Below, one piece after another: positions 8,524 to 37,926 of a stretch of 64,000 nucleotides of DNA. The DNA is from Rhodospirillaceae bacterium. Lineage in GTDB: Bacteria > Pseudomonadota > Alphaproteobacteria > Rhodospirillales > UBA2165. Numbering within the stretch: the stretch's first letter is position 1; each line of letters begins with the position of its first letter. The notes beneath the pieces were generated by a model. That model was not told where the DNA came from. It saw only the letters and a program-made list of their open reading frames with translations, and made no database searches. The translations under genes were made by a program, and so were the position numbers. The stretch is from NCBI GenBank assembly GCA_038127535.1, contig JAYPHU010000010.1, positions 21,786-85,785 of the forward strand. The letters are read 5' to 3'.

Positions 8524-9570
8524 CTAGAACGTATCCACGTCCCCGCCCATAATCCCCCAACTATCGTGATCGAGGATATCCGACTTGAGGTTTGCATCGC
8601 CGAGAGACCGAACAATGAACGGGGCATTTCGATGCCGATGGAACGCCGCACGGCGGAGCACTTTTTCTATTCGCTCAACATTGCACACGGTTTCAAGGAG
8701 CACGGCGCCAAATGCAGATGCCTCTCGAACTACACCGGCAAGAACTGCGGACAGAGCCCTTGGATCTTCTCCTAAAAGTTCAACCAAATGAGCCCGATTG
8801 TCCGCCACCGCTCCCCAGACATCACTCTGCATACCCCAAACGCCAGCGGCCACAATCTCTCCGTGCAACCATGCAGTGACCCAGCGATATTTATTTTCCG
8901 CTTCCGTCGAATATCGCCACCGCATCCACGCGAGGGAACGGTCAACACCGCAGGATGAATGATGATTTTCCCACAGCGACAGCAACGGCTGCAGGTCCTC
9001 GTCCGGCGGTGTTCCGGATTGAATTTCAAACGGGCCGACCCGGCCGGTTGGTAGAACGGCCGCTACCATATCGGCAAGCGGGCCAAGAAGGTCTGGAATC
9101 TTGGGGTGACGTGACGGCTTAATAGGCCGCATCCAGTGCATAACATCGCCGGTATGGCTCCATCCCAGCTTGCGCACAAAACCGGGATAGCTTAACGGAT
9201 TCGGAAACCCGTACATAGTCATGTAGCCTCGGGCCCCCGCAATCTCATAACAGGCGTTTGCCAGCGTTGTGAACACCCCCCGCCCCTGGTAATCGGGATG
9301 CGTCATGGTATCCATGGACTGCGCCCCCAGCATTTTCTTTCCGGCGATCCGCAGTGGCGTCGGCCAAAGCGTGTAAGCGCCGGCCAACCGATCACCATCA
9401 ACGGCCAACGCAACGGGGCAAATTCCTATCGGATTAGATAGATAGCGCCAACGGTCATAGCTTTCGGGGCGGTAATATCCCCAGACATTAAAATAAAGCT
9501 CTCTCAGCGCACCAAAATCGTCAGGCGTCATCTCCCGAAATTTAAGTTCAGAATTTGATTTTGCTGTCAT
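8524..9570 (-). CDS. GNAT-family N-acetyltransferase (two-domain, 348 aa)
   Basis: Acetyl-CoA motif QGRGVFTTLANACYEIA. ATGA overlap with the upstream gene at 9567-9570. Confidence 0.75.
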   Translation of the reverse strand: MTAKSNSELKFREMTPDDFGALRELYFNVWGYYRPESYDRWRYLSNPIGICPVALAVDGDRLAGAYTLWPTPLRIAGKKMLGAQSMDTMTHPDYQGRGVFTTLANACYEIAGARGYMTMYGFPNPLSYPGFVRKLGWSHTGDVMHWMRPIKPSRHPKIPDLLGPLADMVAAVLPTGRVGPFEIQSGTPPDEDLQPLLSLWENHHSSCGVDRSLAWMRWRYSTEAENKYRWVTAWLHGEIVAAGVWGMQSDVWGAVADNRAHLVELLGEDPRALSAVLAGVVREASAFGAVLLETVCNVERIEKVLRRAAFHRHRNAPFIVRSLGDANLKSDILDHDSWGIMGGDVDTF

Positions 9571-11180
9571 CGTTTACCATCAGAAAACAGCACCGAGCGC
9601 CAGACGCTGTAATCGGGTTCTGAAAAAACCGAGTTTGGTCTAATTTTCGGACGATCTGAGGACCCGCACAAAACTCTACCTAAGTTCTGAAATGTTACGG
9701 AGGGGATTTTCAACCCATCTGGTAATATATCCAATGCAATTTTAGTGCTTGGTAGAAATTGGAACGTCGGCAATCCAGCTAAGATAGCCTCCAACCCTAC
9801 CGTCGTAGCGGAATAGACCACTGCTGAGAGCGCCCCTTGATCCTGAAGACGCTTGTTCGTTCTATGAATTCGAGGAGTCCCCATGAAGTAGTACGGGGTC
9901 ATCGGATGGTCCTTGATTAAAACATCCCGGTCTAAATTCGGTAGCGATTCAAAAGCATCAACCATCTCTGCGGAAATATCCCGATCAAACGGTAAGGCCA
10001 CAAAAATGGGCGCAGACTGATCATACGAATGTTTCACATTCGGTAATGTTCGGAGTGCTCCCCCTAACACAACACTCTCCTCTGTGTAGCCCAGTTGCTT
10101 TAACCTAACTTGCGACACGGGTCCGCTCGCTACAATTGTTTCAGGGAAGGTCTTGGCAATACCCTTGTCAGGAGTAGGAAAATAATTCAGTTCCTGTCTT
10201 CCAATAGTAGCATGCTGATAGCCTACCGTCCTGGTGCCGATTTTACGGGCATCACGCACAAAAACGCGCTCCCAGGAATGATTCTCCCAAGGCCATGAGA
10301 CTATTTTTGGCCTAGACTCTTCTAGCCATGCTGATTGACAAATTTGCTGCCAACGAATAATGGCTGGTTGAGCAGTTCCGCTTTCTATCGCTGCAGCTCT
10401 CCGGACGAGCCATCCGTTTGGTCCTGCTAAATCGGATCTTTTAGGTCGCCATTTGACCAATGGAAGCGCTAACGTAGCCATGGGCGCCCCCCATGCATGG
10501 AGACTGAAATTGCGCTTATCGCCTGTCAGTTCCTTGGCGCGGCGCAGACGGCAATCGACGTGAAACACCCTGACGATATTTTCGAACCTCTTCATCATAT
10601 CACCAAAATAACCGTCCTCGCCATCTCGGTTCGCTTGCGGGTGCCCATATACCAGCAAACTAACGGATCCGGCGGGAAACATTTTGCGCTGACCACGCAG
10701 AAAAAGAGAGGAAAAAAACAGTTCCACGGACAAGGCGATCCGTGCCACGTAACCTCGCAAAACCATTCGTAATTTTTGTTTCCATAGTAAGGGCGGTGGA
10801 CCCGCTTTTATTCCCTCAAGGGCTGCCAGGTGGCGATACATCCATGGATCGTCACAAAGAACCGTCACATCTTTATCCTGAATGATCCATTTTTTCACGA
10901 CCTCTGTCCAAGCTAGCATCTGTCCGAAATCCGATGCATTGGCGGCACAGGCAGGCATATGAGCTAAAATGGACGAGGGAACAGATGATAATTTTCGTGC
11001 GGCCGCGATCCATGCATCTTCGATGTCATCGAAGGCTCGGGCCAACTCTTCTGCAATATCTTCGACGAACGGCGCTTTAATCGCCGAAATCGTTGAGGCC
11101 GAAAGGGTTCCGATCGAGCACCATGGTCCGATTATTTTGAGAGACAGTGCCCGTTTCGATGTTACAAGGGTTACCGGCAT
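9567..11180 (-). CDS. Orphan GT-B-like surface-carbohydrate biosynthesis protein (paralog 1 of 3)
   Basis: No family motif recognised with certainty. The C-terminal half has a Rossmann-like pattern with GYQHATIG, VLIKDHPMTPY (K-x-H-P) and SATTVGLEAILAGLP. Trimmed to the ATG at 11180 (MPVTLVTSK...) to avoid overlap with the methyltransferase gene. Confidence 0.6.
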   Translation of the reverse strand: MPVTLVTSKRALSLKIIGPWCSIGTLSASTISAIKAPFVEDIAEELARAFDDIEDAWIAAARKLSSVPSSILAHMPACAANASDFGQMLAWTEVVKKWIIQDKDVTVLCDDPWMYRHLAALEGIKAGPPPLLWKQKLRMVLRGYVARIALSVELFFSSLFLRGQRKMFPAGSVSLLVYGHPQANRDGEDGYFGDMMKRFENIVRVFHVDCRLRRAKELTGDKRNFSLHAWGAPMATLALPLVKWRPKRSDLAGPNGWLVRRAAAIESGTAQPAIIRWQQICQSAWLEESRPKIVSWPWENHSWERVFVRDARKIGTRTVGYQHATIGRQELNYFPTPDKGIAKTFPETIVASGPVSQVRLKQLGYTEESVVLGGALRTLPNVKHSYDQSAPIFVALPFDRDISAEMVDAFESLPNLDRDVLIKDHPMTPYYFMGTPRIHRTNKRLQDQGALSAVVYSATTVGLEAILAGLPTFQFLPSTKIALDILPDGLKIPSVTFQNLGRVLCGSSDRPKIRPNSVFSEPDYSVWRSVLFSDGKR

Positions 11181-11235
11181 GAAATGATAGCGTCGGCGCT
11201 TAAGACGGAAACTGGTTTCGTAAACGCTGTAGCGT

Positions 11236-11931
11236 TTAGCGTGAAATTTGCCACGTACGCGTGATAATCTCGGGGTAGGGTGAAACGGCGAACTCAGAAA
11301 CTCCATGCCTGTATCCCCGCTGCTCAATTCTGTCAGCGTCGGCGAACATGGATTCGATCACCTCCAAGGCATCCGCTTCATTTATGATATTATAAGGCAA
11401 AACTGTGGCGCCAGCAGCTATCTCGCTGCGCGAAAAATCGGTTCGGAAATAGGAGATGGCTTTATCTTCAACGGTCTCCTCTTCCGTCTCACGCAAATCG
11501 AAAATTAGGTTTCTTTCGGTGAATTGCCACGCCAAAGCAAGTGTTTCCTTCCAAACCTCATGCAAGTGAAGTATTCCGAGGCAAAGTACGAGGTCGAAAC
11601 GGGCATCGTTCAAAATCGATAGGTCTGCCTCGTCGACCTTATGAAACGAGTGCTGAGGAAACTTTTCACGAGCCAGATCAATCATCCGTTGGTTAATATC
11701 AACACCTGTATAACTGAACCGTCGAATATTTTCGGATATTATCCCGGCAAATCCGCCCTGGGCGCACCCGACGTCAAGAACGCTCACGCCTTCTTTGAGG
11801 TTGTCCTTTAAGAAGAACCATTCCGATGGATAGACGTCTTCTGTCTTAAGCCGGTGGTGGTCGAAATAGTTCAACGCATCGGGAACGCCCCAAGCGCGAG
11901 CATTACCTAGCCTATTCCTTCGTACAGTCAC
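11236..11931 (-). CDS. Class I SAM-dependent methyltransferase
   Basis: Motif I VLDVGCAQGGFAG. GTG start. Confidence 0.8.
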   Translation of the reverse strand: MTVRRNRLGNARAWGVPDALNYFDHHRLKTEDVYPSEWFFLKDNLKEGVSVLDVGCAQGGFAGIISENIRRFSYTGVDINQRMIDLAREKFPQHSFHKVDEADLSILNDARFDLVLCLGILHLHEVWKETLALAWQFTERNLIFDLRETEEETVEDKAISYFRTDFSRSEIAAGATVLPYNIINEADALEVIESMFADADRIEQRGYRHGVSEFAVSPYPEIITRTWQISR

Positions 11932-13062: not shown

Positions 13063-13101
13063 CGTCAGTCCTAGAATCGGAATTTCCTTATCATTAAAAT
13101 T

Positions 13102-13875
13102 TCAATACTGACCCCACAATGCGTCTTCACGGATGTGCGATTCGACGCGTTCGATATCGTCTGGACTATCCACAGAAAAACTGGGTTGGTAGGCAATGGG
13201 GGCGATATATTGATGGTATCCGTTATCATAAAGGCGATTCGAATCACACGCTTCTTTTAGCTCAAGGGGGCTTTCCGGAAGTTTGGTAAACAGTTTCAGA
13301 AAATGCCAACGGAAGCCGAAAATTCCATAGATTCGCTTGGCGCCAAGTTCCGGCGAGAACATACCGGGCTTGCAATGAGGGATCGGCTGGCGGGATGTGT
13401 ATAAGATGCGGCCGTCGAGATCGTGAATAATTTTAAGAATATCCGGGTTTTGATACTGCGCGTCGTCGACGATATTCATGGCGAGCACGGTGCCGTTGAT
13501 ATCCGCGCGCGCCTCCATCGGCTTGATGGTCGCTGCGATCATATCCGGATACATCATGGGTTCATCCCCTTGGACGTTAAGAACGATATCGCCGTCGCCA
13601 ATACCGACCCCGCAATTCTCGGTCGCTTCCGCAACCCGGTCGAGGGCCCGCGTATGCGTGTCCGCCGTCATAATAACGGGGTATCCTTTCGATTCGGCAA
13701 ATTCTCGGATTTCATCGTCGCAAGTCGCCAGGAACAATCCATCCCAACGATCAAATAGTTTTGCACGTTCGAAAACGTGTTCGATCATCGGCCGGCCGCA
13801 AATCGGGTGAAGGGGTTTGCCGGGAAACCGGCTGGCCGCCATACGGGCCGGAATTATGCCAATGATTTTCGTCAT
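13102..13875 (-). CDS. KdsB/KpsU-like 3-deoxy-2-ulosonate cytidylyltransferase (paralog A, 257 aa)
   Basis: IIGIIPARMAASRFPGKPL and NVQGDEPM motifs of CMP-Kdo synthetase-type enzymes. Confidence 0.8.
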   Translation of the reverse strand: MTKIIGIIPARMAASRFPGKPLHPICGRPMIEHVFERAKLFDRWDGLFLATCDDEIREFAESKGYPVIMTADTHTRALDRVAEATENCGVGIGDGDIVLNVQGDEPMMYPDMIAATIKPMEARADINGTVLAMNIVDDAQYQNPDILKIIHDLDGRILYTSRQPIPHCKPGMFSPELGAKRIYGIFGFRWHFLKLFTKLPESPLELKEACDSNRLYDNGYHQYIAPIAYQPSFSVDSPDDIERVESHIREDALWGQY

Positions 13876-18640: not shown

Positions 18641-19852
18641 CTACTCTTTTTCTACTGCTGTATTCCCCATGAGGCGCGAGCGCACACGTTGGACGGTATT
18701 GCGGATAGGGTTTTGAAGGTTTTCCGGTAGTTTGACGAGTGTCTTACGTGCATGATCTTTCGCCATGAAAAACGCTAAATTATTGTTACTGCGCCGATGC
18801 AAAATCAGGCTCTGTCGAAGAATTTTCAAAGACACTTCAGAATCAACCAGACCACGTTCCGTTACCTTAACGATGCTGCGGTCGATTTGTGCAAACATTT
18901 CGTCAAATTGGTCATGATCAAATTTTAGGTAATTTTTCTGGAAACCTAACGAATTGTCCGGATTTGCGACCAGATTGATATCCGGTTCGGCATCATACTT
19001 CAGTCCTAAGGCAACGAATCGTTCGATTTCTTCACAGTTGACTCGGTTCAGCGTCATGCTGATAGAAAATTCAAAATCCGTTTTGTTTTTTCTTTGCTTC
19101 AACCATTCGAGATTTTCGAGCACCTCGTTCCACGAAGCTTTTCGCCCACGAAGACGCAAGGCATCAAAACTTTCTTCGGTCGCGGCATCCAGCGAAACCG
19201 CCACGCCGAGCAACTCCTTGGTTGCCAGAATAGCCTTAACCCGCTCGGTAAACAAAGTCGCATTCGTAATAAAGTAATATTTACACCCGTCGGTCAGTTG
19301 ATCATTTTCCATAAAGTCCAGAACCGGGCGGTACAAGAACGGTTCTCCACCAAACGGGAGTACGACTTGAAAATGCGGAGACATTTCGGTGATCTGCTGC
19401 ATAAATGACGCTGGCAGCTTGAGCCGCATCAACGCGTCGTCGCGCTGATAACAGTGATAACAATCGAGATTGCAGGCATAGCTATAGGCAAAGCGCATCC
19501 AACGGGGTTTCGATTCTAGGGTTGTGAGCCGCTGATCGAACTCGATCTCGTTCTGGGCCGCATTCTGACGTGCTAGGCTTTGTGTGGGTAAGTCTTCGTA
19601 CCAACTCAGATTCCGATATCGTTTTCCGCCCTGTAGAATGGGGCAGGTGTGTGGGCACAACAAATGGGCGCCCTCATTAGCCATCTTTTTGCGTATACTC
19701 TGGAACCTTTCACCGTTCCAGATGTCTTCCACGGAACCCTCGTTGACATTTCCCAACACGGTCGCGTTGTCGCAACACATGGTTACGTTGCCATTGGGAT
19801 TATTTACTTCAAAGTGAGTCCAAGGATGGTCGCAAACGAATTTATTTTTCAT
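18641..19852 (-). CDS. Radical SAM enzyme with an N-terminal twitch/SPASM-like Cys domain
   Basis: C7-x13-G21-x4-C26C27 ... LGNV ... EDIWNG ... C66-x3-C70 precedes the core cluster motif C127-x3-C131-x2-C134 (YACNLDCYHC). Confidence 0.8.
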   Translation of the reverse strand: MKNKFVCDHPWTHFEVNNPNGNVTMCCDNATVLGNVNEGSVEDIWNGERFQSIRKKMANEGAHLLCPHTCPILQGGKRYRNLSWYEDLPTQSLARQNAAQNEIEFDQRLTTLESKPRWMRFAYSYACNLDCYHCYQRDDALMRLKLPASFMQQITEMSPHFQVVLPFGGEPFLYRPVLDFMENDQLTDGCKYYFITNATLFTERVKAILATKELLGVAVSLDAATEESFDALRLRGRKASWNEVLENLEWLKQRKNKTDFEFSISMTLNRVNCEEIERFVALGLKYDAEPDINLVANPDNSLGFQKNYLKFDHDQFDEMFAQIDRSIVKVTERGLVDSEVSLKILRQSLILHRRSNNNLAFFMAKDHARKTLVKLPENLQNPIRNTVQRVRSRLMGNTAVEKE

Positions 19853-24102: not shown

Positions 24103-24647
24103 TCGCCACCGGCCTCCACGGTGAAATCTGGAAGCGCCACCCTTAACCGCGGCACGGCCATTGCCACCTCCCGAGCCATTTCCACCGGCGAACGCCGATT
24201 ATCCGCGTCCAAAACCATGTCTGGGTTGACCGGCTCATGCCACTCGATATCCATGCCCACGACATTGCCCATTTTCCCATCCCGAGCCTGCGCGTAGAGA
24301 GCCTTGGTATCCCGCGCTATCACGGTATCCAGAGAAGCGTGAAGATAGACTTCGAAGTAGTCGTCTAGATTGGTCCTGTTCCAGTCCAATAAATCGGCAT
24401 TGCCGTATAGGACGGCAACAATAACGACCAACCCCTGCTCCGCCAGAACCTTCGACATGGCCTGTAAGCGCCCAACCTGCAAAATCCGATCCGTTTCGGA
24501 ATAGCCGAGGTTATGCCCAAAGGCAGCCCGAACGATATCGCCGTCCAGAATGACGAGTTCAGGAAGCCGAGGCTTTAAGAGATCTCGCAACGCCGAACAC
24601 AGCGTCGTTTTACCGGCCCCGGAAAGGCCCGTGATCCATACAATCAT
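24099..24647 (-). CDS. cysC: Adenylylsulfate (APS) kinase
   Basis: MIVWITGLSGAGKTT P-loop, LDGDIVR, YSETDR. Confidence 0.9.
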   Translation of the reverse strand: MIVWITGLSGAGKTTLCSALRDLLKPRLPELVILDGDIVRAAFGHNLGYSETDRILQVGRLQAMSKVLAEQGLVVIVAVLYGNADLLDWNRTNLDDYFEVYLHASLDTVIARDTKALYAQARDGKMGNVVGMDIEWHEPVNPDMVLDADNRRSPVEMAREVAMAVPRLRVALPDFTVEAGGE

Positions 24648-24678: not shown

Positions 24679-25860
24679 TTAAACGAGTGTTTTACGGGTT
24701 ACCGCATCAGGCGACGACGAAGACGTCTGGGTTTCAAAGGATTCAAAGCTTTTGCGGGCAAGGTCACGAGCAGCCGGCCCATCGATACTCCGGATATTGT
24801 TGGCTGCACGCGCCCGGGTTATCAGCCCGTCACCCATTTCGGCAATATCTTCCGAACGCAGATACGGGGATATATACTTGCCAAGGTCCAATCCCCTCAA
24901 CCATCTATCTAATAGATCGGGAAATTCCTGTGTTTGGGCGCCAAAGGCATCCGCAGCGATCGCCACGCGGTCCGCATCTTCGTCCATATTAAAACGCGCG
25001 ACTTCCGGTAACGTGAAGCTGCAGGCGAACCCATGCGGCATATCGTATCGCGCCGTAAACGGATAGGACAATGAATGGGCAAGCGCTGTCTGGGTTGTGC
25101 CCATGGCCAAGCCACTCAAAACCGCAGCCGTTTGCATTTGCCGGCGCGATTCCACATTTTCGGCATCTTTCATGACTATCGGCAAGTGGACCTTAATAAT
25201 CTGGATGGCGTTAGCAGCAATCTGATCCGACAAATCCGTTTGATTGCGGTTCCAGATGGATTCAAGAGCATGTGATAATGCGTCCAGCCCGCTCGCCAAC
25301 GTAACGTCCGGGGGCATGGATAGGCATAGCGCTGCATCGAGAACTGCGGCCATAGGAAATAGTTTCGGATGCGTAAAAGAAAACTTAACCTGATCGTCGC
25401 CCCAAACGGTCGCCCACTGAGTAACTTCCGATCCGGTGCCGGAGGTTGTAGGGACGGCAATAACCGGTAACGGCTCAAAGTCGGGGGGCAGGTTCTCACC
25501 GTCTCTCAAATGACTCGTCATTACCTCGTCATTTTTCCCCAGACCACAATATCCCGCGATCGATTTTGCACAATCGATAACCGACCCGCCTCCCAGGGCA
25601 ACAATAATTTCGGCGTCACCGGTCAGCTTATCGGCCAAACCGACGACATCGGAAACCTTCGGGTTTTCGGGTATCGTTTCAATACACGCAACCGGTTCTC
25701 CGGCAAATCGGTATACCGATTCCAGCGCCCCGCGTGCGCGCCATCCTCTGCTGGTCGCAATCGCCCAGGACCGGCCTGAAATGAGCTGGCCAATCGCCTC
25801 CCCGTAGGCCTGCGTATAATATACGCGCGTCGGGCTGTAATAAGGACGGTTCAGAACCAT
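24679..25860 (-). CDS. Iron-containing (group III) alcohol dehydrogenase; by context a phosphonoacetaldehyde reductase candidate
   Basis: LGGGSVIDCAK and LSHALES His region of Fe-ADHs. Its ATG lies 10 nt inside the end of the HEPD/MPnS-like gene. Confidence 0.75.
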   Translation of the reverse strand: MVLNRPYYSPTRVYYTQAYGEAIGQLISGRSWAIATSRGWRARGALESVYRFAGEPVACIETIPENPKVSDVVGLADKLTGDAEIIVALGGGSVIDCAKSIAGYCGLGKNDEVMTSHLRDGENLPPDFEPLPVIAVPTTSGTGSEVTQWATVWGDDQVKFSFTHPKLFPMAAVLDAALCLSMPPDVTLASGLDALSHALESIWNRNQTDLSDQIAANAIQIIKVHLPIVMKDAENVESRRQMQTAAVLSGLAMGTTQTALAHSLSYPFTARYDMPHGFACSFTLPEVARFNMDEDADRVAIAADAFGAQTQEFPDLLDRWLRGLDLGKYISPYLRSEDIAEMGDGLITRARAANNIRSIDGPAARDLARKSFESFETQTSSSSPDAVTRKTLV

Positions 25861-27212
25861 TGGGACGTTTCTTCGATTGCGCGTTTTTTCCCGCTCGGCG
25901 CGAACGAGGCAAATTCGTCGAGGACGGAATCAGTGAAAGCTCCCGGTACGCGAATCATCGCCAGTTTGCCGTCTTCCGCACCCGTAACTCTCTCGAAGCG
26001 ATGGGTAACCAATGGGAGCACATAGGCCGAATCTCCTGGCTGCAAGGTCCGGCGCTGGTCGTCCGCCCAAACCAGATCAACCGGCGCATCGCCATAATTA
26101 TAGATATATTCGTGCAGCGCATGATACATATCACCCCCCGGTCCACCGAGAACGGCAACGTCAAAGCCTTTGAGCAATGGTTGATGCGAACAGCGGGCAA
26201 GCTCAACCAATTGATAGGCCGGTTGATTTCCATCAGGATATCCGCGCCCTGGGGTGGTGCTTAGTTTGCGCACCACAACGCGTCTCTCGGATGGAACGGA
26301 ATCGGCCATGAGATCGGCCGGTCGAACGTTCAGCAGCTGCGCCACAGACTGTACCTCGTCCCATGTCGGCACTTCACCATCGAGAAGGGCCTGGGCGCGA
26401 GGTGCCTCGCACCCGTTTTCGATCATGCGTGAAACGAAACTCGGGACGGTCATGCTCTCGGCGGCCAACTGACGCTTCATCCTAAGGGCGAACGGCGCAT
26501 CGACGTCTAAATTTCCGGCATGATCCATGAGTGACTGACCATCGACCGAGGCGAATTCACGATAGGCACGGCGAACCTCCCCGCCATAGGTGATGGCGAT
26601 GATCAAGCCCCTTGTCTCCGAATCCCGGCTGGTGAAACTATGAGGAACAAACGGCGTGATATAGTTCGAATCGCCGGTATTCATTTCTTCGCAATAACGG
26701 CGTCCATCGATTTCCCAGTAAAAATTCACGGGGCCGATGAAAAAGGTCGTTTGGTGCATAAAATGTCCCTTGTTATAGGCGACATCAGGGTTTTCGGGAT
26801 CGGCGTTGTCGACATAGCGTATTTCGGCGATCCACTCCGGCTTAAAGGGCGCAAGCTGGCTCATGGCCGTATCGCGGTATTCATAGTAGGGAGATGTCGA
26901 TCCGGTACGATCGACCCTGTCGAAAATACGCGAAGACCGGCGGGATTGTTCGGCGGTCATGACCAGAACACCGTTGTCGGTGTCGTCGCTGTCCAGCCAA
27001 ATATCGGCAAGCGAAATCGGATAAACTTCGGCCATAGTTTTCATAACGTTCTCGGCGGTCGTCAAATCCGTCTGTCCGGCAATCGTGGATTCGATAATTT
27101 CCAATGGGATGCCGATATCCTGCGCGAGCGCTGACGGAGTGCGTTTAAGATCGTTTGCCTCACTTAGTATACGTGCGCCCAGTTTTTGCAGAAACTGACC
27201 CTGTTTGGTCAT
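25851..27212 (-). CDS. HEPD/MPnS-family (HTH-cupin)x2 non-heme iron oxygenase; methylphosphonate synthase-like
   Basis: Two repeats of an XRE-like HTH plus a cupin. First cupin: GH150FMHQ154TTFFIGPVNF164 ... YI185TPFVPH191. ATGA overlap with the upstream nucleotidyltransferase at 27209-27212. Confidence 0.7.
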   Translation of the reverse strand: MTKQGQFLQKLGARILSEANDLKRTPSALAQDIGIPLEIIESTIAGQTDLTTAENVMKTMAEVYPISLADIWLDSDDTDNGVLVMTAEQSRRSSRIFDRVDRTGSTSPYYEYRDTAMSQLAPFKPEWIAEIRYVDNADPENPDVAYNKGHFMHQTTFFIGPVNFYWEIDGRRYCEEMNTGDSNYITPFVPHSFTSRDSETRGLIIAITYGGEVRRAYREFASVDGQSLMDHAGNLDVDAPFALRMKRQLAAESMTVPSFVSRMIENGCEAPRAQALLDGEVPTWDEVQSVAQLLNVRPADLMADSVPSERRVVVRKLSTTPGRGYPDGNQPAYQLVELARCSHQPLLKGFDVAVLGGPGGDMYHALHEYIYNYGDAPVDLVWADDQRRTLQPGDSAYVLPLVTHRFERVTGAEDGKLAMIRVPGAFTDSVLDEFASFAPSGKKRAIEETSQWF

Positions 27213-28015
27213 ATGGATTCCTCGTTCAGAGATTGAAGGGTGCTCAACCGTTGGCGGTCGGCAATAGTGTTCAATCGATTATAATCTTGGAGCGTGTCGA
27301 GTTCGGCCCACCCACGTTCGACCAACGCCGCGTCGATGCGGTGCCCCCTGTCGACAAGCTCCTGGAACATATCCGTTATGTAGGCGATACGCCAAGCACG
27401 AGCCCGTTGAAACGGTTCTTCGGGGTCAAGCCGTTTGTCTAGTTCGTCAAACGTCTCCCGCATGAGCGTAGTTCCGTCCGCGCTCATACGCCATAAACCA
27501 AGGAATTCACCTTGTTCTTCTATCTTTTCCTGCGGCTCCTTCAGCCCTTTTCCAAATCTATGCAATCTGCCGTCGGCGTCGAAGTGGGCGTTCTCGGCTT
27601 CTTCGGGGGGATGTTCCGAACGGCCGATATAATAATCTTTCCAATCCGTATCGACCGCCGCGACGATGTCGCCGCCGGTGTTTACAAGCGCTGTGTAGAT
27701 GCCGGGTTCGACCCAAATATCCGAATAGGTACAAATCAACGGCCCGTCGAGTGCATCCCGGGCACACATCAATGAATGCAGGATATTATTGTTTTCGTAG
27801 TTGTTATTCCGGACGAAGCGGACGCTATCTGTTTGGACGGCCTCGCTCATATGGCCGACGATAACGATAATTTCATCGCAACCGGCGGCACGAAGATTAT
27901 CTTTCGCGCTTTCAATCAGGGGGCGCCCGCCGACCGGTAACATGCATTTAGGGCGCACTATTGTCAGTGGACGCATACGCATCCCCATCCCCGCCGCGAT
28001 AATTACCCCTTTCAT
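27209..28015 (-). CDS. LicC/PntC-like nucleotidyltransferase (cytidylyltransferase candidate for a phosphonate or phospho-alcohol)
   Basis: MKGVIIAAGMGMRMRPLT (GxGxR) with a small-molecule NTP-transferase fold length (268 aa). ATGA overlap at 28012-28015. Confidence 0.75.
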   Translation of the reverse strand: MKGVIIAAGMGMRMRPLTIVRPKCMLPVGGRPLIESAKDNLRAAGCDEIIVIVGHMSEAVQTDSVRFVRNNNYENNNILHSLMCARDALDGPLICTYSDIWVEPGIYTALVNTGGDIVAAVDTDWKDYYIGRSEHPPEEAENAHFDADGRLHRFGKGLKEPQEKIEEQGEFLGLWRMSADGTTLMRETFDELDKRLDPEEPFQRARAWRIAYITDMFQELVDRGHRIDAALVERGWAELDTLQDYNRLNTIADRQRLSTLQSLNEESI

Positions 28016-29637: not shown

Positions 29638-30597
29638 TTAACCTTTTGACGAAATCGTACCCTTCGGCACGATCCTTTCAAATTTCTCCCAGGCCTCGAC
29701 ATGGTCCGAACCCATTAGGGTTCCTTTTACGTCACACAATCTGCATGGCCCGAAATCTCGGTCTGCGGCGGCTAACCGTTTCCGCGCGATTCTCATTCGG
29801 CGTCCGGCCCAGATCTCCAGGAAATTCGATTCGTTCATGTTCCCTACCACGAGCATTTTTCCCCAATCATGAGGGCACATTAAAACGTCGCCCGTATAAT
29901 CCATAAAAAAGGTGTAGTGAGGGTAATTACACGCGGCCTTGATTGGCTCGGGTGGTGTATCAATCGAGTACTCCGCCGAATCCATCATTCCTGCCCGGTT
30001 ACTTAATGTAATGCCAAAGTCCTGTTCCGGTGGCAAATACCGTTTTCGAATGACGAACTGATGGGAATCCAGCCCTTCATCGCGACACAAATTTTCGAAA
30101 CGTTCCACATCCTCGGGGCCGTCATAGACGCTTATCAGAAGCGTCGAAAGACCGTTTTCAAATAACAGTTTTAGGCGTTTAGCGTCGAGAACGTCCCCAT
30201 TGGTGACAAGCTCCAGACGAACTTCGGGAAGGTTTGAACGGACAATTTTAAGTAGGTTAAAAATATTCTTATCAAGTAGTGGCTCTACAAAACCGGAAAA
30301 TAGAAATATGCCTTTGTAATTTAGTTCCGCGAGTTGCCGAACTAGCTTTTCGATAAGCTCGTCGGAAATGAACTCCTTCACGTCGGGGAAGGCTGGGGCG
30401 CTTCGCGGGCAAAACGAGCAGGTTCGATTACATGTTCCGGACTCGCTGATTTCAACCACCGAAGGCAACGGCACCTTATCGCCATGAAATGTAAGGTTTT
30501 CGTCAACGATCGACGACTTCCTTTTTATGGAAGGATCGAGGAAAGTTTTGCCCCTGTTGGTTCTCACGTTCATGGCGTCTAATTCGTTAGTTTTCAA
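29638..30597 (-). CDS. Radical SAM enzyme with canonical C-terminal twitch/SPASM-like domain
   Basis: SGTCNRTCSFCPR (CxxxCxxC). C-terminal C-x12-G-x4-C (CNYPHYTFFMDYTGDVLMC) ... LEIW ... CRLC. The track start is TTG (TTGA overlap). An ATG at 30573 is the alternative. Confidence 0.8.
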   Translation of the reverse strand: MKTNELDAMNVRTNRGKTFLDPSIKRKSSIVDENLTFHGDKVPLPSVVEISESGTCNRTCSFCPRSAPAFPDVKEFISDELIEKLVRQLAELNYKGIFLFSGFVEPLLDKNIFNLLKIVRSNLPEVRLELVTNGDVLDAKRLKLLFENGLSTLLISVYDGPEDVERFENLCRDEGLDSHQFVIRKRYLPPEQDFGITLSNRAGMMDSAEYSIDTPPEPIKAACNYPHYTFFMDYTGDVLMCPHDWGKMLVVGNMNESNFLEIWAGRRMRIARKRLAAADRDFGPCRLCDVKGTLMGSDHVEAWEKFERIVPKGTISSKG

Positions 30598-32342
30598 TGA
30601 AGCCGATCAAGGATCTCACATTTCATATCCCGTGCAATATCGCCGTCAACAACTTCGCCCATAGACTTACCCGACAGATCGATAAGCCCTGCCAATTGTT
30701 GAGTGGGGTAATACCATGTACCGGCCTCAGCCTCGCGAATGCGTTTGGCCGCCGTGGCGGAGTCTTTGACACATATGTCAGGAATCTCACGAAACATCGC
30801 TGTCGGCTGAAACGATGCTGTATCAAGCGCGAATGCCTGCATACCGAGCTGGGCCGCCTCGAACAATACGGACGAAGGGTCCGAAAACGCATATTTGCCT
30901 TTAAACATCAGGTCGTAGACGGGTTCGGTCGTGTATCTCACGTTTGGACGGCCGGCACTGCATTTTTCGACTAGCCGATCGCCGATTTCGCTTTCGTTCA
31001 TAACGCGCTTCACCTGCAGATAAACGGTTCTCTCGGGAAACGCCGCCGACAGGCCCCGCACAATATCGACAACGTCATCATGGTCCGAAAAGACGCCAAT
31101 AAAAAACACGATGTCGTTAGGCTTCGGCCTAAGCCGGTTTTGAAGTTGTGCATCTGTTAAACTATGGCTGGCGGCACCGATAACCCCCATATCCGCAGGC
31201 CAATGATCCCGGTAATGCCTCTCATAATGACTTGGGCCATATACGTAAAAGCGGTCAAAACTAACATAGCGCAAATGCGGAAATAGGTCGCAGTAGACGG
31301 GTATGCCGTCGGACATTCCGAACGACTTCGCACCTATTTTTTTTAGTTCTTGGTGCCGAAGAATATGATCGACATTGTAAGGGTCGCGCCCCCAAAAATA
31401 CCGCGGCCGGAACCTCAATACCAACCCTCTGATCTGAACACGCTTTTGCGCCAAATTCACTATCCAGAAAAAAAGACTCGGAGGAAAGTAACGGCCGGCC
31501 CTAGCCAAATCCCATGTATGCCGAATAAATTCGTCGAGATAACTCAGGGTGTCCGCAAGGCTAAACCTGCCGTCACGCCGCTCACAAACCGCCACCGGAT
31601 CCAGGCCATCAAGCTTGCTGCGGTCAACCGGCCCCATTCGCCCGACCAAAACGATATCGCCCCACCGGCGCAGGGCTTTTAGCATCGATATGTCTCTGGA
31701 ATCTTCCATATGGTCGGTCGCCATAAAGACGTCATTCAATCTTTCAACTTTCAAGCGCGTCCGCGATAAAATAAATAACACTCCCCGTACAACAACCATC
31801 ACGGCAATCAAGGCATTCACCATCATCCTTGGCAGGGATTGACGCATCTTGTCGGACGCAGACCCCGGTGAGGCGTATTCCCGGCTCATCGCCAGAAGAT
31901 CTTCGGGAACACCCACATTCTTCGCGGAATTCAACTCCTTGTCGGCAAACAGCTTCGAAAGGAGCAACGCCTCGACTTGGCGGTCCCAACTCAGTTGGCA
32001 GACCGCCTTTCGGGCCGCCATGGCATAATCCGGTATTTGGCGGTCTAGCCGCTCAAACTCGTAATACCGTTCGAGCCAGGGTTCGACGATGCGAAAAATG
32101 TCATAAAGTAAGACACTGGGCGGATAGAGCATCACCATCTTAAGTTCCGGATAACGTTTGCCCAGATCCCTTGCCCAACCTCGGCTCTTAGCCCATTGCG
32201 CCAAGGATTCGAGCAACCGTTGGCTTGGCCCAAAAGCCCCGTGGACCGATAAAATCAAGGGCGACCGCCTGAAAGCGACTTCCAACAGAAATCTCGGACA
32301 ACTTGATTCCGTTAGCCGGATGACAACTGGATTACGCGACAT
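30594..32342 (-). CDS. Orphan GT-B-like surface-carbohydrate biosynthesis protein (paralog 2 of 3)
   Basis: 582 aa with no motif I can assign. The C-terminal half is patterned like the 9567 and 35986 proteins (FGMSDG..., GPSHYERHY, FFIGVFSD..., SSVLFEAAQLGMQAF). Confidence 0.6.
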   Translation of the reverse strand: MSRNPVVIRLTESSCPRFLLEVAFRRSPLILSVHGAFGPSQRLLESLAQWAKSRGWARDLGKRYPELKMVMLYPPSVLLYDIFRIVEPWLERYYEFERLDRQIPDYAMAARKAVCQLSWDRQVEALLLSKLFADKELNSAKNVGVPEDLLAMSREYASPGSASDKMRQSLPRMMVNALIAVMVVVRGVLFILSRTRLKVERLNDVFMATDHMEDSRDISMLKALRRWGDIVLVGRMGPVDRSKLDGLDPVAVCERRDGRFSLADTLSYLDEFIRHTWDLARAGRYFPPSLFFWIVNLAQKRVQIRGLVLRFRPRYFWGRDPYNVDHILRHQELKKIGAKSFGMSDGIPVYCDLFPHLRYVSFDRFYVYGPSHYERHYRDHWPADMGVIGAASHSLTDAQLQNRLRPKPNDIVFFIGVFSDHDDVVDIVRGLSAAFPERTVYLQVKRVMNESEIGDRLVEKCSAGRPNVRYTTEPVYDLMFKGKYAFSDPSSVLFEAAQLGMQAFALDTASFQPTAMFREIPDICVKDSATAAKRIREAEAGTWYYPTQQLAGLIDLSGKSMGEVVDGDIARDMKCEILDRLH

Positions 32343-34269: not shown

Positions 34270-35210
34270 TATGGTGAATCTTTTAGGACGGCTACCAATT
34301 GATCGATGGTGCTACGATGGACGTTATTCCAGGCACGCGGACTGGAATTGCTGTTATGGGGCGCTAGCATCACGTTATCCATCGACCTAAGCGGACTGTC
34401 GGCGGGCAATGGTTCGTCTTCAAACACATCGAGCCCAACGCCACCAATTTCGCCAGACTTAAGCGCAGCCACCAATGCCGACTCATCCACAACCGGGCCG
34501 CGCGCAGTATTGATCATCACGGCGGTCGATTTCATACGGCGAAATTGGTCGTGACTTAATAGATGATGCGAGGTTTCGTTAAGATCGCAGTTAACACTGA
34601 TGAAGTCGGATTCCGCAAGCAAATGATCCAAACTGGTCATTTGAACGCCCAGTTCCGTTTGCTGATGCCGATCGATCTCCCGAATATCGGTTCCCCGCAA
34701 TTCAAAACCAAAGCCTCTTGCGCGCCTCAAAACCGCCGAACCAACGTCTCCGACACCAATAACACCCAAAACCGATTCATTCAGCGCTCGGCCCGGCAAT
34801 TTGTCCCAAACGCCGTTTTTCATCATGCGGTCCATCCAGGGCAAGCGCCGAGCGAAGCATAGGATATACCCCATAACCGAGTCGGCGACTGGCTGAGAAA
34901 AGGCGTTCGGTGTCCGGCAAACTCGAATACCGCGGCGTTCAGCCTCTTCTGACGCGATCGAATCAATTCCGGTACCCCATTTGGCAATAACTTTTAGCTT
35001 GGGCGCCGCATCGAGAACGCGCTCGGTTATTCGGTCGTCACCACATATGATGCCGTCCATGTCGCCGACAACGGCAAGCAAATCGTGTTCTTCGAGACGC
35101 TCTTCGACGTCGGCTGTGGTTACTTTGATATCGTGAGCCGCAAATTCTTCGGCGAATTGACCGACAACGGGCAGTAGATAGGGCGCGCTAATTAAAACAT
35201 TCCAGGTCAA
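34269..35210 (-). CDS. D-isomer-specific 2-hydroxyacid dehydrogenase (PGDH-like)
   Basis: VLGVIGVGDVGSAV (GxGxxG), NTARGPVVDE, APHNSNSS. TTG start in a TTGA overlap with the upstream stop. Confidence 0.85.
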   Translation of the reverse strand: MTWNVLISAPYLLPVVGQFAEEFAAHDIKVTTADVEERLEEHDLLAVVGDMDGIICGDDRITERVLDAAPKLKVIAKWGTGIDSIASEEAERRGIRVCRTPNAFSQPVADSVMGYILCFARRLPWMDRMMKNGVWDKLPGRALNESVLGVIGVGDVGSAVLRRARGFGFELRGTDIREIDRHQQTELGVQMTSLDHLLAESDFISVNCDLNETSHHLLSHDQFRRMKSTAVMINTARGPVVDESALVAALKSGEIGGVGLDVFEDEPLPADSPLRSMDNVMLAPHNSNSSPRAWNNVHRSTIDQLVAVLKDSP

Positions 35211-35980
35211 GAGTTCTTTTCTCCGGCTTCAAGATATTCCGCACACAATGGATCTGACCTCATCAGAGTTTCAACGCGGGTCAGGTCGGACGGAGTGTCG
35301 ACGGCGAAGGTAGAAAACGACGTTTCAACCATATGGACCCGCACACCGTTTTCAATGAATCTCAGCATGTCTATGGATTCGGATATTTCCAGCGGGGTCG
35401 GTGCCAGGGAGGCAAAGTTTTCGAGGGCGTTTCGCCGGAACGGCATGATGCAGACCTGTTTGTAAGCGGGAATCTCCTTAAAGGCCGCCTTGCCCGGATG
35501 AGGTATGGCCGAGCGCGACATGTACAAGGCGCGCCCGTCTAATCCGGTGACGACCTTAATCGTATTAGGATCGCGCCATTCTTCCTCCGATTCGATCTTC
35601 TTCATTAGGTTGACACAGGGTATCGAAGAGTCGCCGGTCATCGCCGCAACAGCCGCGTCTATCATATCGGGGTGAACCATTGGTTCATCACCCTGCACCA
35701 TGACGGCGATTTCGGCGTCTAAACTCTCCATCGCTTCGGCGATGCGGTCGCTAGCCCGTTCGTGTCGATCCGAGGTCATACTGTACTGTCCGCCAAACCG
35801 CTCAACAGCTTGGCAGATTTCGGTATCACAGGTGGCAACATAAACGCCGGACAACGACTTGCACATGGCGGTTCGATGATAAACGTGCTCGATCATGCTG
35901 AGCCCTAGGATCGGTGCCAGCGGCTTGCCCGGAAACCGCGAAGATCCCATGCGCGCAGGTAGGATGGCGACTGTGGACAT
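35207..35980 (-). CDS. KdsB/KpsU-like 3-deoxy-2-ulosonate cytidylyltransferase (paralog B, 257 aa)
   Basis: VAILPARMGSSRFPGKPL and MVQGDEPM. Trimmed to the ATG at 35980 (MSTVAIL...). Same length as paralog A at 13102..13875. Confidence 0.8.
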   Translation of the reverse strand: MSTVAILPARMGSSRFPGKPLAPILGLSMIEHVYHRTAMCKSLSGVYVATCDTEICQAVERFGGQYSMTSDRHERASDRIAEAMESLDAEIAVMVQGDEPMVHPDMIDAAVAAMTGDSSIPCVNLMKKIESEEEWRDPNTIKVVTGLDGRALYMSRSAIPHPGKAAFKEIPAYKQVCIMPFRRNALENFASLAPTPLEISESIDMLRFIENGVRVHMVETSFSTFAVDTPSDLTRVETLMRSDPLCAEYLEAGEKNS

Positions 35981-35985
35981 AATAT

Positions 35986-37926
35986 TTATTCCTCTGCGGT
36001 CGACATGAGGTTGGAGACGACCTCCCACGTACGGCGCGCCGGATTCGGAATTTCTCCAAGCGCTGCGTGGTTTTCTATCAAGGCGCCAAAATCTGGAAAA
36101 TGCTCCGATTTGACCGCTTCGGCGATTTCATCCACGTCTTCATAAAACGAGCTATCCGCAAGATAATCACGATTGACTGCACTGTGTTTAAAAACGACCG
36201 GAAAATACGGTTTTCCCGCACCGAGAACCTCGATCATTGCGGCTGATACCGCGGGGCCGATTGCGATATCGGCCCAGGCAAGAGATTCCGAAAACGGTTC
36301 ATCTTTCCGGATGTTGATGTCTAAATCATAGTAATCGGCGATCGTAGCGTAATAGGCTTGGTTATAAGGGCCTGGATGGATTTTCAACTGAATCTCATAT
36401 TCGCCGCTTTCAAAAAGTTTGCGGACCAAGTTAACCGTAAAGTCGTACTGCATGGCCTGTGGACACAAGTGATCTTCACCAGTTGGAACAAATTGCAGAA
36501 GGAGAATGCGTTTTACCTGGTCAGGTTCCATCGCTTGATAGCCGGCGCTAACCGCCAAGGGATTTCCTGTTCTAATTTGGCCAACCGGCGAGCCCATATT
36601 GTCGAGCCATTTTTCGTTTGCAATGCCCCAGGTAAAAAACCAATCGATCGGAGAGGTGACGCGGGAATCAGCGCCGAGAATACTCATTTTGACGTCTTGG
36701 ATATATTGCCCGTGCCAAGTTGCAATGGTCTTTATGCCTAATTTCCTCCCTACGGTATAAAGAATGTGCCCCAAATAATAATCGAGTCCGTCTGACAAAA
36801 GCATCCGCGGTTGAAGCATATTTAATAGGGATTCGATATGCTTAACTTCACGTGCCATTTCCCCCAAGCGGCCCGTGGATATGATATTTTTGATCGCGTA
36901 TTCAAGGATCAGCTTGAAACGATCGTCTTTTGGCCTATCTGCTAACCGGGTCAATTCTTGCTCGATCACGAGGACCCGCGCTTGATCGCCTTTGGTAAGG
37001 TTGGGTATTGATGAATTAATTGGAACCACACCGCGAATTAGGTTCCGAAAGGTCCACCGCCACTTCAATTTGTTCGGCAGCCAAGGAGCATAAATGCATG
37101 CAAAAAAGTCGCTTTGATCAAAGGCCGAGATAAGTGGCATTGAAGTAAGCTGGGTGGAGGCAACCAAAATACGTGGCTTAGTCGGATTTATGGATAACCG
37201 AAGGCGTCCCACAATACCCCAAATTGTGACCAAAGAAGACTGCAGGCCATTAATAAACGTGTTTTTCAGTTTTGGTTTTGCGGGCGGTCTCCATTTGTAG
37301 TCTGCCGAAAACGGGAGGTTGGGATCGTCATCATCCGGCGGATCGCTCGCATCTATTGTTTCGATTGAATGGCGATCCGACACCGTTTCTACCAATTCCA
37401 ACCTGGCTTTTGTATCGAGGAGGTTATGCTCAGCACGAAAATCGACAAATATAATTTGGCGGGGTGAATAACGAGCGATCATGGTTTCGAGCGCTCTCAC
37501 CAATCGATCGTATTCCTGGTTGATGAGGGAAATTTCCCTTGAAAACCTCGCTCCTAAAGATACACCCCGGAACTCGGTCGGATCAGGTCCATCCGAATAG
37601 AGCCAATCATTGACCTTCACAAACATATCGGAACGCTGGTCCAAATCGGCACGATTTATACTTTCTGCCTCGTAGTGAACGCAGTGGCGGCCTTCGGCAA
37701 TCGCCTGCTGCCAAAGAAGCCACCCATGCGCGACCAGCAAGATACTGTCATCGAATGGATCAAACTTGGAGAAATGCCGAGGGTGCGACACCAACGCCAA
37801 GCATGAGTAACGTTCTCGCATATAATCCGGGTTCTGGCCGAATTGGTACAGAACAGGTTTACTTCGACTACTCGTATCGATGAGTGATCGCTGTGCATTC
37901 CCGACCGAATCGTTTTTCATGAACAA
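35986..37926 (-). CDS. Orphan GT-B-like surface-carbohydrate biosynthesis protein (paralog 3 of 3)
   Basis: 646 aa. C-terminal half has ATWHGQYI, IQLKIHPGPY (K-x-H-P) and AAMIEVLGAGKP, patterned like the 9567 protein. Confidence 0.6.
   Translation of the reverse strand: MFMKNDSVGNAQRSLIDTSSRSKPVLYQFGQNPDYMRERYSCLALVSHPRHFSKFDPFDDSILLVAHGWLLWQQAIAEGRHCVHYEAESINRADLDQRSDMFVKVNDWLYSDGPDPTEFRGVSLGARFSREISLINQEYDRLVRALETMIARYSPRQIIFVDFRAEHNLLDTKARLELVETVSDRHSIETIDASDPPDDDDPNLPFSADYKWRPPAKPKLKNTFINGLQSSLVTIWGIVGRLRLSINPTKPRILVASTQLTSMPLISAFDQSDFFACIYAPWLPNKLKWRWTFRNLIRGVVPINSSIPNLTKGDQARVLVIEQELTRLADRPKDDRFKLILEYAIKNIISTGRLGEMAREVKHIESLLNMLQPRMLLSDGLDYYLGHILYTVGRKLGIKTIATWHGQYIQDVKMSILGADSRVTSPIDWFFTWGIANEKWLDNMGSPVGQIRTGNPLAVSAGYQAMEPDQVKRILLLQFVPTGEDHLCPQAMQYDFTVNLVRKLFESGEYEIQLKIHPGPYNQAYYATIADYYDLDINIRKDEPFSESLAWADIAIGPAVSAAMIEVLGAGKPYFPVVFKHSAVNRDYLADSSFYEDVDEIAEAVKSEHFPDFGALIENHAALGEIPNPARRTWEVVSNLMSTAEE

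Follow-up and report, generated by a model that had tools for sequence, protein, structure and literature searches.

Which proteins of a bacterial surface-glycan locus transfer the 2-ulosonic acids that its own cytidylyltransferases activate with cytidine monophosphate (CMP)? The question is raised by a 64,000-nt stretch of DNA from a Rhodospirillaceae bacterium (GCA_038127535.1, contig JAYPHU010000010.1, positions 21,786 to 85,785 of the forward strand), referred to here as the window. Scans with NCBIfam and Pfam models find exactly three genes for CMP-ulosonate synthetases in it, two KdsB-like and one NeuA/PseF-like. This is the number given by a first-pass annotation of the DNA, which had also singled out three large proteins, here called P1, P2, and P3, as candidates for the matching transferases. 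[quoted passage not shown] The grounds at hand are the fold of P1 and P2, the homology of P1 and P3, the conservation of a motif, a remote link to a transferase family of Tannerella, and synteny; from these we infer the donor, the acceptor, the roles of the catalytic residues, and the pairing of each enzyme with a cytidylyltransferase.

The Three Proteins and Their Families

The three open reading frames (ORFs) singled out earlier are real, although the lengths given for two of them, 538 amino acids (aa) for P1 and 646 aa for P3, become 537 and 644 aa. P3 occupies 35986-37926 when read from a TTG start; gene callers use the ATG at 37920 (Table 1). A Pfam scan of P1, P2, and P3 returned zero family matches, and no curated Pfam or NCBIfam model is matched above its cut-off, in agreement with the suggestion that the proteins represent uncharacterised families. 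To call them orphans was an overstatement: P1 has more than 541 homologs, more than 500 sequence clusters, and a TIGR04326 match described below; the P3 family comprises 350 cluster representatives at E ≤ 1e-3 in an exhaustive search of representatives, far more than a first search showed; and P2 has 32 relatives, together with 42 metagenome loci. A profile search of genome contigs with the alignment of close P3 relatives returned a single locus, in a metagenome-assembled genome, and no cultured organism with a known glycan was found in that search.

Fold

AlphaFold2 models were built for P1 (pLDDT 91.2, pTM 0.90) and P2 (pLDDT 93.1, pTM 0.91). Compared with the PDB by Foldseek at E ≤ 1e-3, they gave 79 and 174 matches, respectively, to GT-B proteins only. 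The models place P1 and P2 in the GT-B fold with confidence, as had been supposed, and P3 would have a GT-B core by its homology to P1 (hhalign 96.9%) and by weak Pfam matches to Glyco_transf_4 in seven of nine close relatives. The best match of P1 is NeuC (5xvs, E 1.1e-7), and its matches include UDP-GlcNAc 2-epimerases, GT4 and GT1 transferases, the Cps3 capsule polymerase, and TagF. P2 matches bacterial OGTs, UDP-GlcNAc 2-epimerases, the polysialyltransferase-CDP structure 5wcn (rank 3, E 1.2e-6), PseG, the Kdo transferase WaaA, and TagF. The TagF structure 3l7l is matched at E 2e-4 by P1 and at 1.2e-5 by P2. The TM-scores are 0.4–0.55 on target length, as is usual for two-domain hinge proteins, and pick out no single GT family.

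Given such matches, might the three proteins be no transferases at all, and instead GT-B hydrolases or epimerases of nucleotide sugars, akin to NeuC, PseG, or WecB, that serve sugar biosynthesis? The place of NeuC at the top of the P1 list would fit, as would the many UDP-GlcNAc 2-epimerases matched by both models, the PseG match of P2, and a P2 relative that matches Epimerase_2 (E 0.007). But the locus already encodes a bona fide Epimerase_2 protein, PF02350 is unmatched by the families as a group, and any GT-B protein yields TM-scores of 0.4–0.55. Epimerases of about 370 aa are also a poor fit to the HP loop, to the large extra N-terminal regions, and to the links with NF046086 and TIGR04326, and we regard this explanation as the least probable of those weighed here.

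Bacterial OGTs, aligned over about 594 columns, are the top Foldseek matches of P2, and they bring protein O-glycosylation into consideration. FlmG is an alphaproteobacterial protein of 596 aa, with an N-terminal TPR region of about 310 aa and a C-terminal GT-B domain of about 290 aa (PMC7591256), and P1–P3 resemble it in their size split. On this analogy, an N-terminal region of each protein would bind the acceptor, a flagellin, S-layer, or other protein, to which the C-terminal GT-B domain would add a nonulosonic acid, and a Maf/PseD-like gene does lie just upstream of P3. The TM-scores to OGT are, however, low (0.32–0.35), neither a TPR nor another protein-binding Pfam domain was detected in P1–P3, and the window has neither flagellin nor S-layer genes. 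The locus looks like one for a polysaccharide, in that it encodes an ABC exporter, GT2s, a GT-C, an MBOAT protein, and a NusG-type antiterminator. Protein O-glycosylation by P1–P3 is, in our estimate, very unlikely.

The C-terminal layout common to the three proteins is that of a generic GT-B nucleotide-binding domain, in which the first strand carries an acidic tail and the second ends in the K-x-H-P loop, with an [ST]-x4-E-A-x3-G helix besides. Because the layout is generic, P2 can resemble P1 and P3 without detectable sequence homology. The terminal [ST]-x4-E-[AV]-x3-G block noted earlier is found in all three proteins, as TTVGLEAILAG in P1, SSVLFEAAQLG in P2, and SAAMIEVLGAG in P3, and its Glu is conserved in 119/120, 32/32, and 142/150 of their respective relatives.

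In the model of P2, the N-terminal half (residues 1–300) is mostly helical, and a strongly hydrophobic helix lies in the middle of this region (Table 1). Its 19 hydrophobic residues are a possible membrane anchor.

Homology among P1, P2, and P3

Are the three proteins paralogs, as the first-pass annotation held? BLASTP and hidden Markov model (HMM) searches among the window proteins show no similarity among P1, P2, and P3. Shallow family alignments, obtained by a word-indexed search, held 34, 30, and 9 sequences for P1, P2, and P3, and profile–profile comparisons at that depth (9–34 sequences) were not significant (E 0.037 to 0.29); the P1–P3 alignment, at E 0.037, was colinear and set HP on HP. 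The P1–P3 link reached significance because the representative search supplied a deeper P3 alignment. Set against each other by hhalign, 120 P1 and 150 P3 sequences align over 261 columns (95.2%, E 2.7e-8), the C-terminal halves alone give 96.9% and E 1.9e-10, and the P3-family HMM matches single P1 relatives at E values down to 1e-6. By profile comparison, then, P1 and P3 are homologous across their C-terminal 260–290 aa or so. The N-terminal halves of the three families, when compared, gave nothing significant, and by the same kind of comparison the N-terminal 270–350 aa of P1 and P3 are unrelated to each other.

Paralogy is thus upheld for P1 and P3, and falls short for P2. The C-terminal half of P2 aligns colinearly with that of P3 over 240 columns at E 1.3e-3, and with P1 at E 0.07. 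A marginal profile match joined to a likeness at the level of fold is suggestive of paralogy between P2 and P3, not proof of it.

Conserved Residues

The motifs quoted for P1 and P3 are present, as VLIKDHPMTPY and LKIHPGPY, and P2 reads YLQVKR, without HP, at the matching site. K-x-H-P occurs in three of the 53 window proteins, two of which are P1 and P3, against expectations by composition of 0.93 in the window and 0.08 in P1–P3. The His of the motif is conserved in orthologs. In the P1 family, K/R423, H425, P426, and M427 are invariant (120/120); among 150 diverse P3 relatives, K/R513 is found in 150, H515 in 148, P516 in 137, S/T559 in 150, and E564 in 142. Other invariant residues of the P1 family, in the other domain, are E299, N300, and a second His, H323. 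H323 aligns with H403 of P3, which is present in 97/150 relatives of that protein. The invariant Lys of P2, K445, aligns with the HP-motif His of P3 (YLQVKR against QLKIHP).

The HP motif was defined in the sialyltransferases of families GT38, GT52, and GT80 by Freiberger et al. (PMC2169525). The meningococcal NmB polysialyltransferase (polyST) reads IFIKLHPKE, as deduced from the primers of that study; its H278A and P279A variants have a Km for CMP-Neu5Ac raised three- to five-fold with an unchanged Km for the acceptor, and in PmST1 the CMP phosphate is hydrogen-bonded by H311 (PMC2169525). At the sequence level, the K-x-H-P context of P1 and P3 is that of K-L-H-P in NmB polyST. The same authors defined a companion D/E-D/E-G motif (PMC2169525), located in the acceptor-side domain, at the site of which each of P1–P3 has an acidic residue without the motif itself being clearly present. 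P1 has an invariant W-E299-N300-H301 there, after the strand at 293–297; P2 has G-R-D320 (32/32); and P3 has S-D377-G378, with D in 88/150 and G in 68/150 relatives.

Links to Described Families

One described family, TIGR04326 of NCBIfam, is matched by residues 290–530 of P1 over profile positions 335–599 of 602 (E 5.5e-12, 44.8 bits). The curated cut-off is 250 bits, and the P1-family consensus, at 70.6 bits over the C-terminal 270 or so positions of the model only, also lies below it. All of the 34 P1 relatives scanned against NCBIfam match TIGR04326 (best E 3.6e-23, below the cut-off), three match TIGR04396, and one matches NF046086 (E 0.0062). Of 55 diverse P3 relatives, four match TIGR04326, three TIGR04396, one TIGR04331, and two NF046086 (best E 4.4e-11). 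P3 itself does not match TIGR04326; its relative P0295 does so over residues 459–607, the HP-bearing domain, at 23.5 bits. The P2 family has no matches in NCBIfam, and its members have scattered matches to GT-B models of Pfam at E 0.007–0.1 only. Profile searches against PDB sequences returned nothing relevant.

BFO_1060, after which the NF046086 family is named, is the ortholog of Tanf_01245 and TFUB4_00887 of Tannerella forsythia (PMC5420450). Deletion of these genes removes the terminal derivative of pseudaminic acid (Pse) or Leg from the O-glycan, and the proteins were described as having HP, D/E-D/E-G, and a TagB/GT-B domain (PMC5420450). The relationship of P1 and P3 to this family, as read from profile scores, is remote and is not membership. 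Judged in the same way, P1 and P3 are part of a loose superfamily whose HP-type GT-B enzymes are encoded beside ulosonate genes, and they are members of none of its curated families.

Gene Neighborhoods in Related Loci

Relatives of all three families co-occur on a single 237-kb contig (P0010, P0154, and a P2 relative), and another contig has both P0159 and P0124. P3 lies, in the window as in three related loci (L008, L009, and L014), between the gene for a B12-radical SAM enzyme, which follows the Maf-like gene, and a CTP_transf_3 gene. For P1, a KdsB-like gene is found at most three genes away in the window, L010, L012, and L013, and in the last two an HpcH/HpaI aldolase and a GFO oxidoreductase accompany the P1 relative and the KdsB-like gene. 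For P2, a metagenome scan gave 42 loci, of which 25 have a flank of 5 kb or more and were counted as informative. A homolog of a CMP-ulosonate synthetase or NeuB lies within 5 kb of the P2 relative in 20 of these 25, and in four of the remaining five the contig ends upstream, where the KdsB-like gene usually sits. Closer relatives of P2 follow KdsB-like, 2-hydroxyacid dehydrogenase, and GT2-ADH genes; the most distant (22–25% identity) lie inside NeuB/NeuC/PtmE/NeuA clusters. This synteny with KdsB-like or NeuA/NeuB genes is the strongest argument for the use of CMP-ulosonic acids by all three proteins.

Two further features of the related loci were observed. Next to P1 or P2 relatives, the KdsB-like gene has a pyruvate aldolase gene (HpcH/HpaI or HMGL-like) as its partner, often along with one for a HAD phosphatase (L012 11610-13149, L013 11562-13081, and the JGI 3300072015 contig with P0139); the window has no such aldolase. 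The pairing may point to an unusual 3-deoxy-2-ulosonic acid made by way of a pyruvate aldolase. There are also more proteins of about 560 aa without a Pfam match (L012 20251-21617, L013 2907-4586, and 19264-20967 of the P0145 contig), which lie outside the P1, P2, and P3 families when compared with them and may be additional unclassified transferases.

Proposed Role of P1, P2, and P3

We propose that P1–P3 are cytoplasmic or membrane-associated GT-B glycosyltransferases in the assembly line of a surface glycan. In the catalytic core of P1 and P3, about 260 aa, the second strand of the nucleotide-binding domain would be followed by a K-x-H-P loop of the sialyltransferase/TagF type; the acceptor-side domain would contribute another conserved His, and the core would also have the generic GT-B [ST]-x4-E-A-x3-G helix. 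The His of the HP loop would touch the phosphate of the CMP leaving group, and CMP-activated 2-ulosonic acids are therefore proposed as the donors. The 2-ulosonic acid would be transferred onto a lipid-linked or polymeric acceptor, the donors being the products of the adjacent KdsB-like cytidylyltransferases or, possibly, CMP-Leg. P2 would be drawn into this scheme by its fold and gene neighborhood, with an invariant Lys for the His and its hydrophobic helix as a possible anchor.

Several observations weigh against this proposal. P2 lacks the HP motif and has K445 in its place; the D/E-D/E-G motif is not evident in P1, which reads W-E-N-H, and P3 has S-D-G only. None of P1, P2, and P3 matches NF046086 at E ≤ 1, and only a few of their relatives do. 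The curated Pfam models of the sialyl-, Kdo-, and TagF-type transferases are unmatched by the proteins or their relatives: PF07388, PF07922, and PF11477 are matched by none of them bar one P3 relative (PF07388, E 0.22), PF04464 by no member of the three families, and PF05159 by none of P1, P2, and P3. The best structural matches are generic, UDP-GlcNAc 2-epimerases and GT4/GT1 enzymes for P1 and OGT for P2, and KpsC, WbbB, GT80, and GT52 are absent from the top 50 Foldseek matches of both models. As to the likeness to sialyltransferases and KpsC proposed earlier, K-x-H-P is as in NmB polyST; in structure, neither KpsC/WbbB nor GT80/GT52 are specific matches.

There are, besides, a Maf-like candidate for a transferase and other activated donors in the locus itself. 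The equation of three synthetases with three transferases is too simple, given the Maf/PseD-like candidate at 39505-40548 and a methylphosphonate pathway with a nucleotidyltransferase of its own. The MptE/Maf-like gene is kept upstream of P3 in L008, L009, and L014, and its product, by its Pfam and partial PseD matches, is a fourth candidate for a CMP-nonulosonate (CMP-Leg) transferase.

Methylphosphonate Genes and a Possible Phosphonotransferase Role

What, then, do the methylphosphonate genes contribute? The 453-aa MPnS-like protein (Table 1) has Gln, Phe, and Ile at the positions aligned with Q152, F162, and I184 of NmMPnS, which we take to be the MPnS signature; at the second and third of these, the HEPD chain reads Tyr and Gly. 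From its gene content, the locus probably decorates its glycan with methylphosphonate. The phosphoenolpyruvate (PEP) mutase signature ED[KQ]x5NS occurs in none of the six frames of the window, and the window and its 10 kb of upstream sequence yielded neither PepM nor Ppd (phosphonopyruvate decarboxylase).

P1–P3 might be pictured as TagF-like phospho- or phosphonotransferases that use as donor a CDP-polyol or CMP-activated methylphosphonate, the latter from the MPnS of the locus, pass its phosphoryl or phosphonyl group on to the glycan, and release CMP. Both models have TagF (3l7l) and the TagF-like Cps3 polymerase (8qoy) in their Foldseek lists, and the reaction of an HP-type GT-B enzyme is chemically not far from phosphonyl transfer with release of CMP. 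In TagF-like enzymes two conserved, essential His residues hold the donor pyrophosphate (PMC5974469), a pattern that the invariant H323 and H425 of P1 fit too, and the Tannerella transferases are annotated with a "TagB" domain (PMC5420450). Besides the MPnS-like protein, the PhpC-like iron-containing alcohol dehydrogenase (Fe-ADH), and the nucleotidyltransferase, the window encodes a 516-aa double nucleotidyltransferase by an epimerase fusion, and no phosphonate transferase is known for methylphosphonate esters (PMC9381506).

The neighborhoods cut both ways. P1 relatives adjoin the NTP-transferase/MPnS/Fe-ADH trio in L011 and L033; on the other hand, they are far commoner than MPnS and mostly have no MPnS nearby, the trio not being near L010, L012, and L013. 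MPnS or its nucleotidyltransferase lies within 5 kb of a P2 relative in 0/25 loci, as against ulosonate genes in 20/25, P3 always adjoins ulosonate cytidylyltransferases, and PF04464 is, as said, unmatched in any family. We judge the phosphotransferase explanation, the main rival to our proposal, unlikely for the three proteins as a set. On the 0/25 count, P2 was rejected as a phosphonate transferase; phosphonyl transfer by P1 is a minority possibility.

A more pointed version would make an HP-type GT-B family, most plausibly that of P1, the missing enzyme for attachment of methylphosphonate, as an ester, to the polysaccharide of marine microbes. The adjacent nucleotidyltransferase would supply a CMP-phosphonate, and transfer would follow TagF-like chemistry with CMP leaving. 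This is a long shot; if true, the step catalysed by P1 would put a methane-precursor phosphonate into marine high-molecular-weight organic matter.

Layout of the Locus

Gene order was taken from the Pfam annotation of identical metagenome contigs and from our own Pfam and NCBIfam scans. Every sizeable ORF of the window is on the minus strand, and together they form one surface-glycan locus of about 60 kb. At its head are the genes for a helix-turn-helix (HTH) protein and a NusG-like protein, which, by analogy with RfaH and UpxY, suggest locus-specific antitermination of a very long operon. The Leg genes in the window encode a dehydratase, DegT, NeuC, NeuB, and PtmE. Next come the NeuA/PseF-like cytidylyltransferase, a 56-aa ORF, the MptE/Maf-like protein, a B12-radical SAM enzyme, and P3, after which KdsB-like no. 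2 (its 257-aa call starts 6 nt past the P3 stop), a 2-hydroxyacid dehydrogenase, and a GT2-ADH fusion lead to P2. Between P2 and P1 lie radical SAM, SDR, and methyltransferase genes and those of the nucleotidyltransferase, the 453-aa protein, and the Fe-ADH, and also those of APS kinase, a sulfotransferase-like protein, an ABC exporter, two GFO/IDH/MocA oxidoreductases, an AlgX-like protein, and MBOAT. KdsB-like no. 3 and two methyltransferases precede P1; past it are a GNAT, a deacetylase, a heparinase-like protein, GT2s, and a GT-C.

Table 1. Coordinates, within the window, of P1–P3, their conserved elements, and other features of the locus.
Feature	Position	Strand	Remarks
P1	9567-11180	-	537 aa; GT-B protein with K-D-H-P motif; distant TIGR04326 relative
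P1 residues 270–534, core common with P3	9579-10373	-	last N-domain strands and whole C-terminal Rossmann domain; by hhalign
P1 K423-D-H425-P426	9903-9914	-	directly after predicted strand 420–423 (model); translated
P1 Y321-Q322-H323	10212-10220	-	second invariant His, in N-domain of core; H323 in 120/120
P2	30594-32342	-	582 aa; GT-B protein without HP motif
P2 K445	31008-31010	-	invariant Lys, 32/32; aligns with HP-motif His of P3
P2 residues 174–192 (MVNALIAVMVVVRGVLFIL)	31767-31823	-	strongly hydrophobic helix; Kyte-Doolittle mean 2.49; helix 170–193 in model
P3	35986-37920	-	644 aa; C-terminal ~290 aa homologous to P1 core; K-I-H-P motif; N-terminal ~350 aa of unassigned fold
P3 K513-I-H515-P516	36373-36384	-	translated; conserved in relatives
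KdsB-like cytidylyltransferase no. 2	35207-36028	-	NF009905 E 1e-91, above cut-off; called as 257 aa; upstream of P2
KdsB-like cytidylyltransferase no. 3	13102-13875	-	NF003952 E 2.4e-63, above cut-off; two genes upstream of P1
NeuA/PseF-like cytidylyltransferase	40772-41452	-	TIGR03584 E 4.5e-42; candidate CMP-Leg synthetase
MptE/Maf-like (PseD-like) protein	39505-40548	-	PF01973; NF050051 PseD E 2.2e-11, partial match
Epimerase_2 protein (bona fide)	46389-47567	as locus	Pfam
WbuX	42885-44273	-	E 4e-109, above cut-off; beside Leg genes
HisF-like protein	42102-42878	-	beside Leg genes
HisH-like protein	41476-42147	-	beside Leg genes
NusG-like paralog	57130-57633	-	head of Leg-to-P1 gene string
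HTH_24 protein	57636-58385	-	head of Leg-to-P1 gene string
APS kinase	24099-24647	-	followed by sulfotransferase-like gene
Sulfotransferase-like protein	22906-24102	-	Sulfotransfer_3 E 3e-5
453-aa MPnS-like protein	25851-27212	-	full-length relative of MPnS 6b9s, E 1.4e-84; HEPD 6b9r, E 6e-67
PhpC/PsrA-like Fe-ADH	24679-25860	-	flanks 453-aa protein
Nucleotidyltransferase	27209-28015	-	flanks 453-aa protein
B12-binding radical SAM enzymes (three)	1173-2918, 37975-39474, 51420-53480	-	in the one glycan locus
Radical SAM/SPASM enzymes (two)	18641-19852, 29638-30597	-	in the one glycan locus

The context of the NeuA/PseF-like gene is NeuB/NeuC/PtmE/WbuX/HisH/HisF, and the WbuX, HisF-like, and HisH-like genes beside the Leg genes indicate, by analogy, a 5-acetamidino Leg as in the O-antigen of Legionella. 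An ORF of 56–57 aa with no Pfam match (40572-40742, minus strand; L008 7150-7323; L009 7119-7292) is kept between the NeuA/PseF-like and MptE/Maf-like genes in all related loci seen, and its product could be a small partner of the Maf-like enzyme. The APS kinase and sulfotransferase-like genes recur as a pair in related loci, and a sulfated glycan is implied by them. The number of radical SAM enzymes in the locus is unusually high and suggests several C-methylations or other radical modifications of sugars.

At the edge of the window, 61120-63864 (minus strand) encodes the last 914 aa of a 1297-aa protein. Its only recognisable part is a ribulose-phosphate 3-epimerase domain at residues 680–900 or so of the fragment; the other 1000 aa or so have no annotation. 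The 516-aa protein with two nucleotidyltransferase domains (59570-61120, minus strand) follows this epimerase fusion, and the two may form a route to a CDP-pentitol or similar donor.

Comparison with Known Systems

Few transferases are known for the nonulosonic and Kdo-like sugars of bacteria, and they are spread over small CAZy families of recent definition; one enzyme each was the basis of GT99, GT107, GT118, and GT140. As putative CMP-ulosonate transferases, P1–P3 are plausible as new enzyme families of a familiar kind, with a mechanism that is itself conventional. Common in marine Alphaproteobacteria, the three families offer testable catalytic residues and defined cytidylyltransferase partners. 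Their characterisation would add glycosyltransferase families and show what the unusual KdsB-like enzymes activate; it would also help to decode marine surface glycans with heavy modification, which bear methyl, sulfate, and acetamidino groups and, possibly, phosphonate.

The BFO_1060 family is alike in its GT-B/TagB-like domain, its HP motif, and the position of its genes beside those of CMP-nonulosonate biosynthesis. It differs in length (about 445 aa, against 537–644 aa) and in host, being found in Bacteroidota and not in Alphaproteobacteria, and the Tannerella enzymes have DXD and D/E-D/E-G, which are not evident in P1. With the GT38 polysialyltransferases (NmB polyST and MhPST, 5wcn) and with GT52 and GT80, the GT-B fold and, in P1 and P3, the K-x-H-P loop are shared. 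In contrast to these enzymes, D/E-D/E-G is not clearly conserved here, P2, which matches 5wcn, is without HP, and P1–P3 have extra N-terminal regions of 270–350 aa. TIGR04326, the uncharacterised LIC13510 family of surface carbohydrate biosynthesis, would be a sister family, since the P1 family scores 45–70 bits against it where 250 are set for membership; its N-terminal half does not align with that of P1.

TagF and TarF would be alike in the modified GT-B fold, in two essential His residues, one of them in the nucleotide-binding domain, and in the CMP leaving group, and 3l7l and 8qoy are structural matches. Unlike in their case, the neighbors here are ulosonate cytidylyltransferases, not glycerol-3-phosphate cytidylyltransferases, and PF04464 is not matched. 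Finally, KpsC/KpsS (GT107), WbbB (GT99), KpsS1 (GT118), and KrkA (GT140) are deeply divergent families derived from GT-B that have been recognised recently (PMC12887879). These β-Kdo and Pse transferases would have the use of a CMP-ulosonic acid in common with P1–P3. Their N-domain is reduced and displaced, whereas P1 and P2 align with canonical GT-B proteins over about 400 columns.

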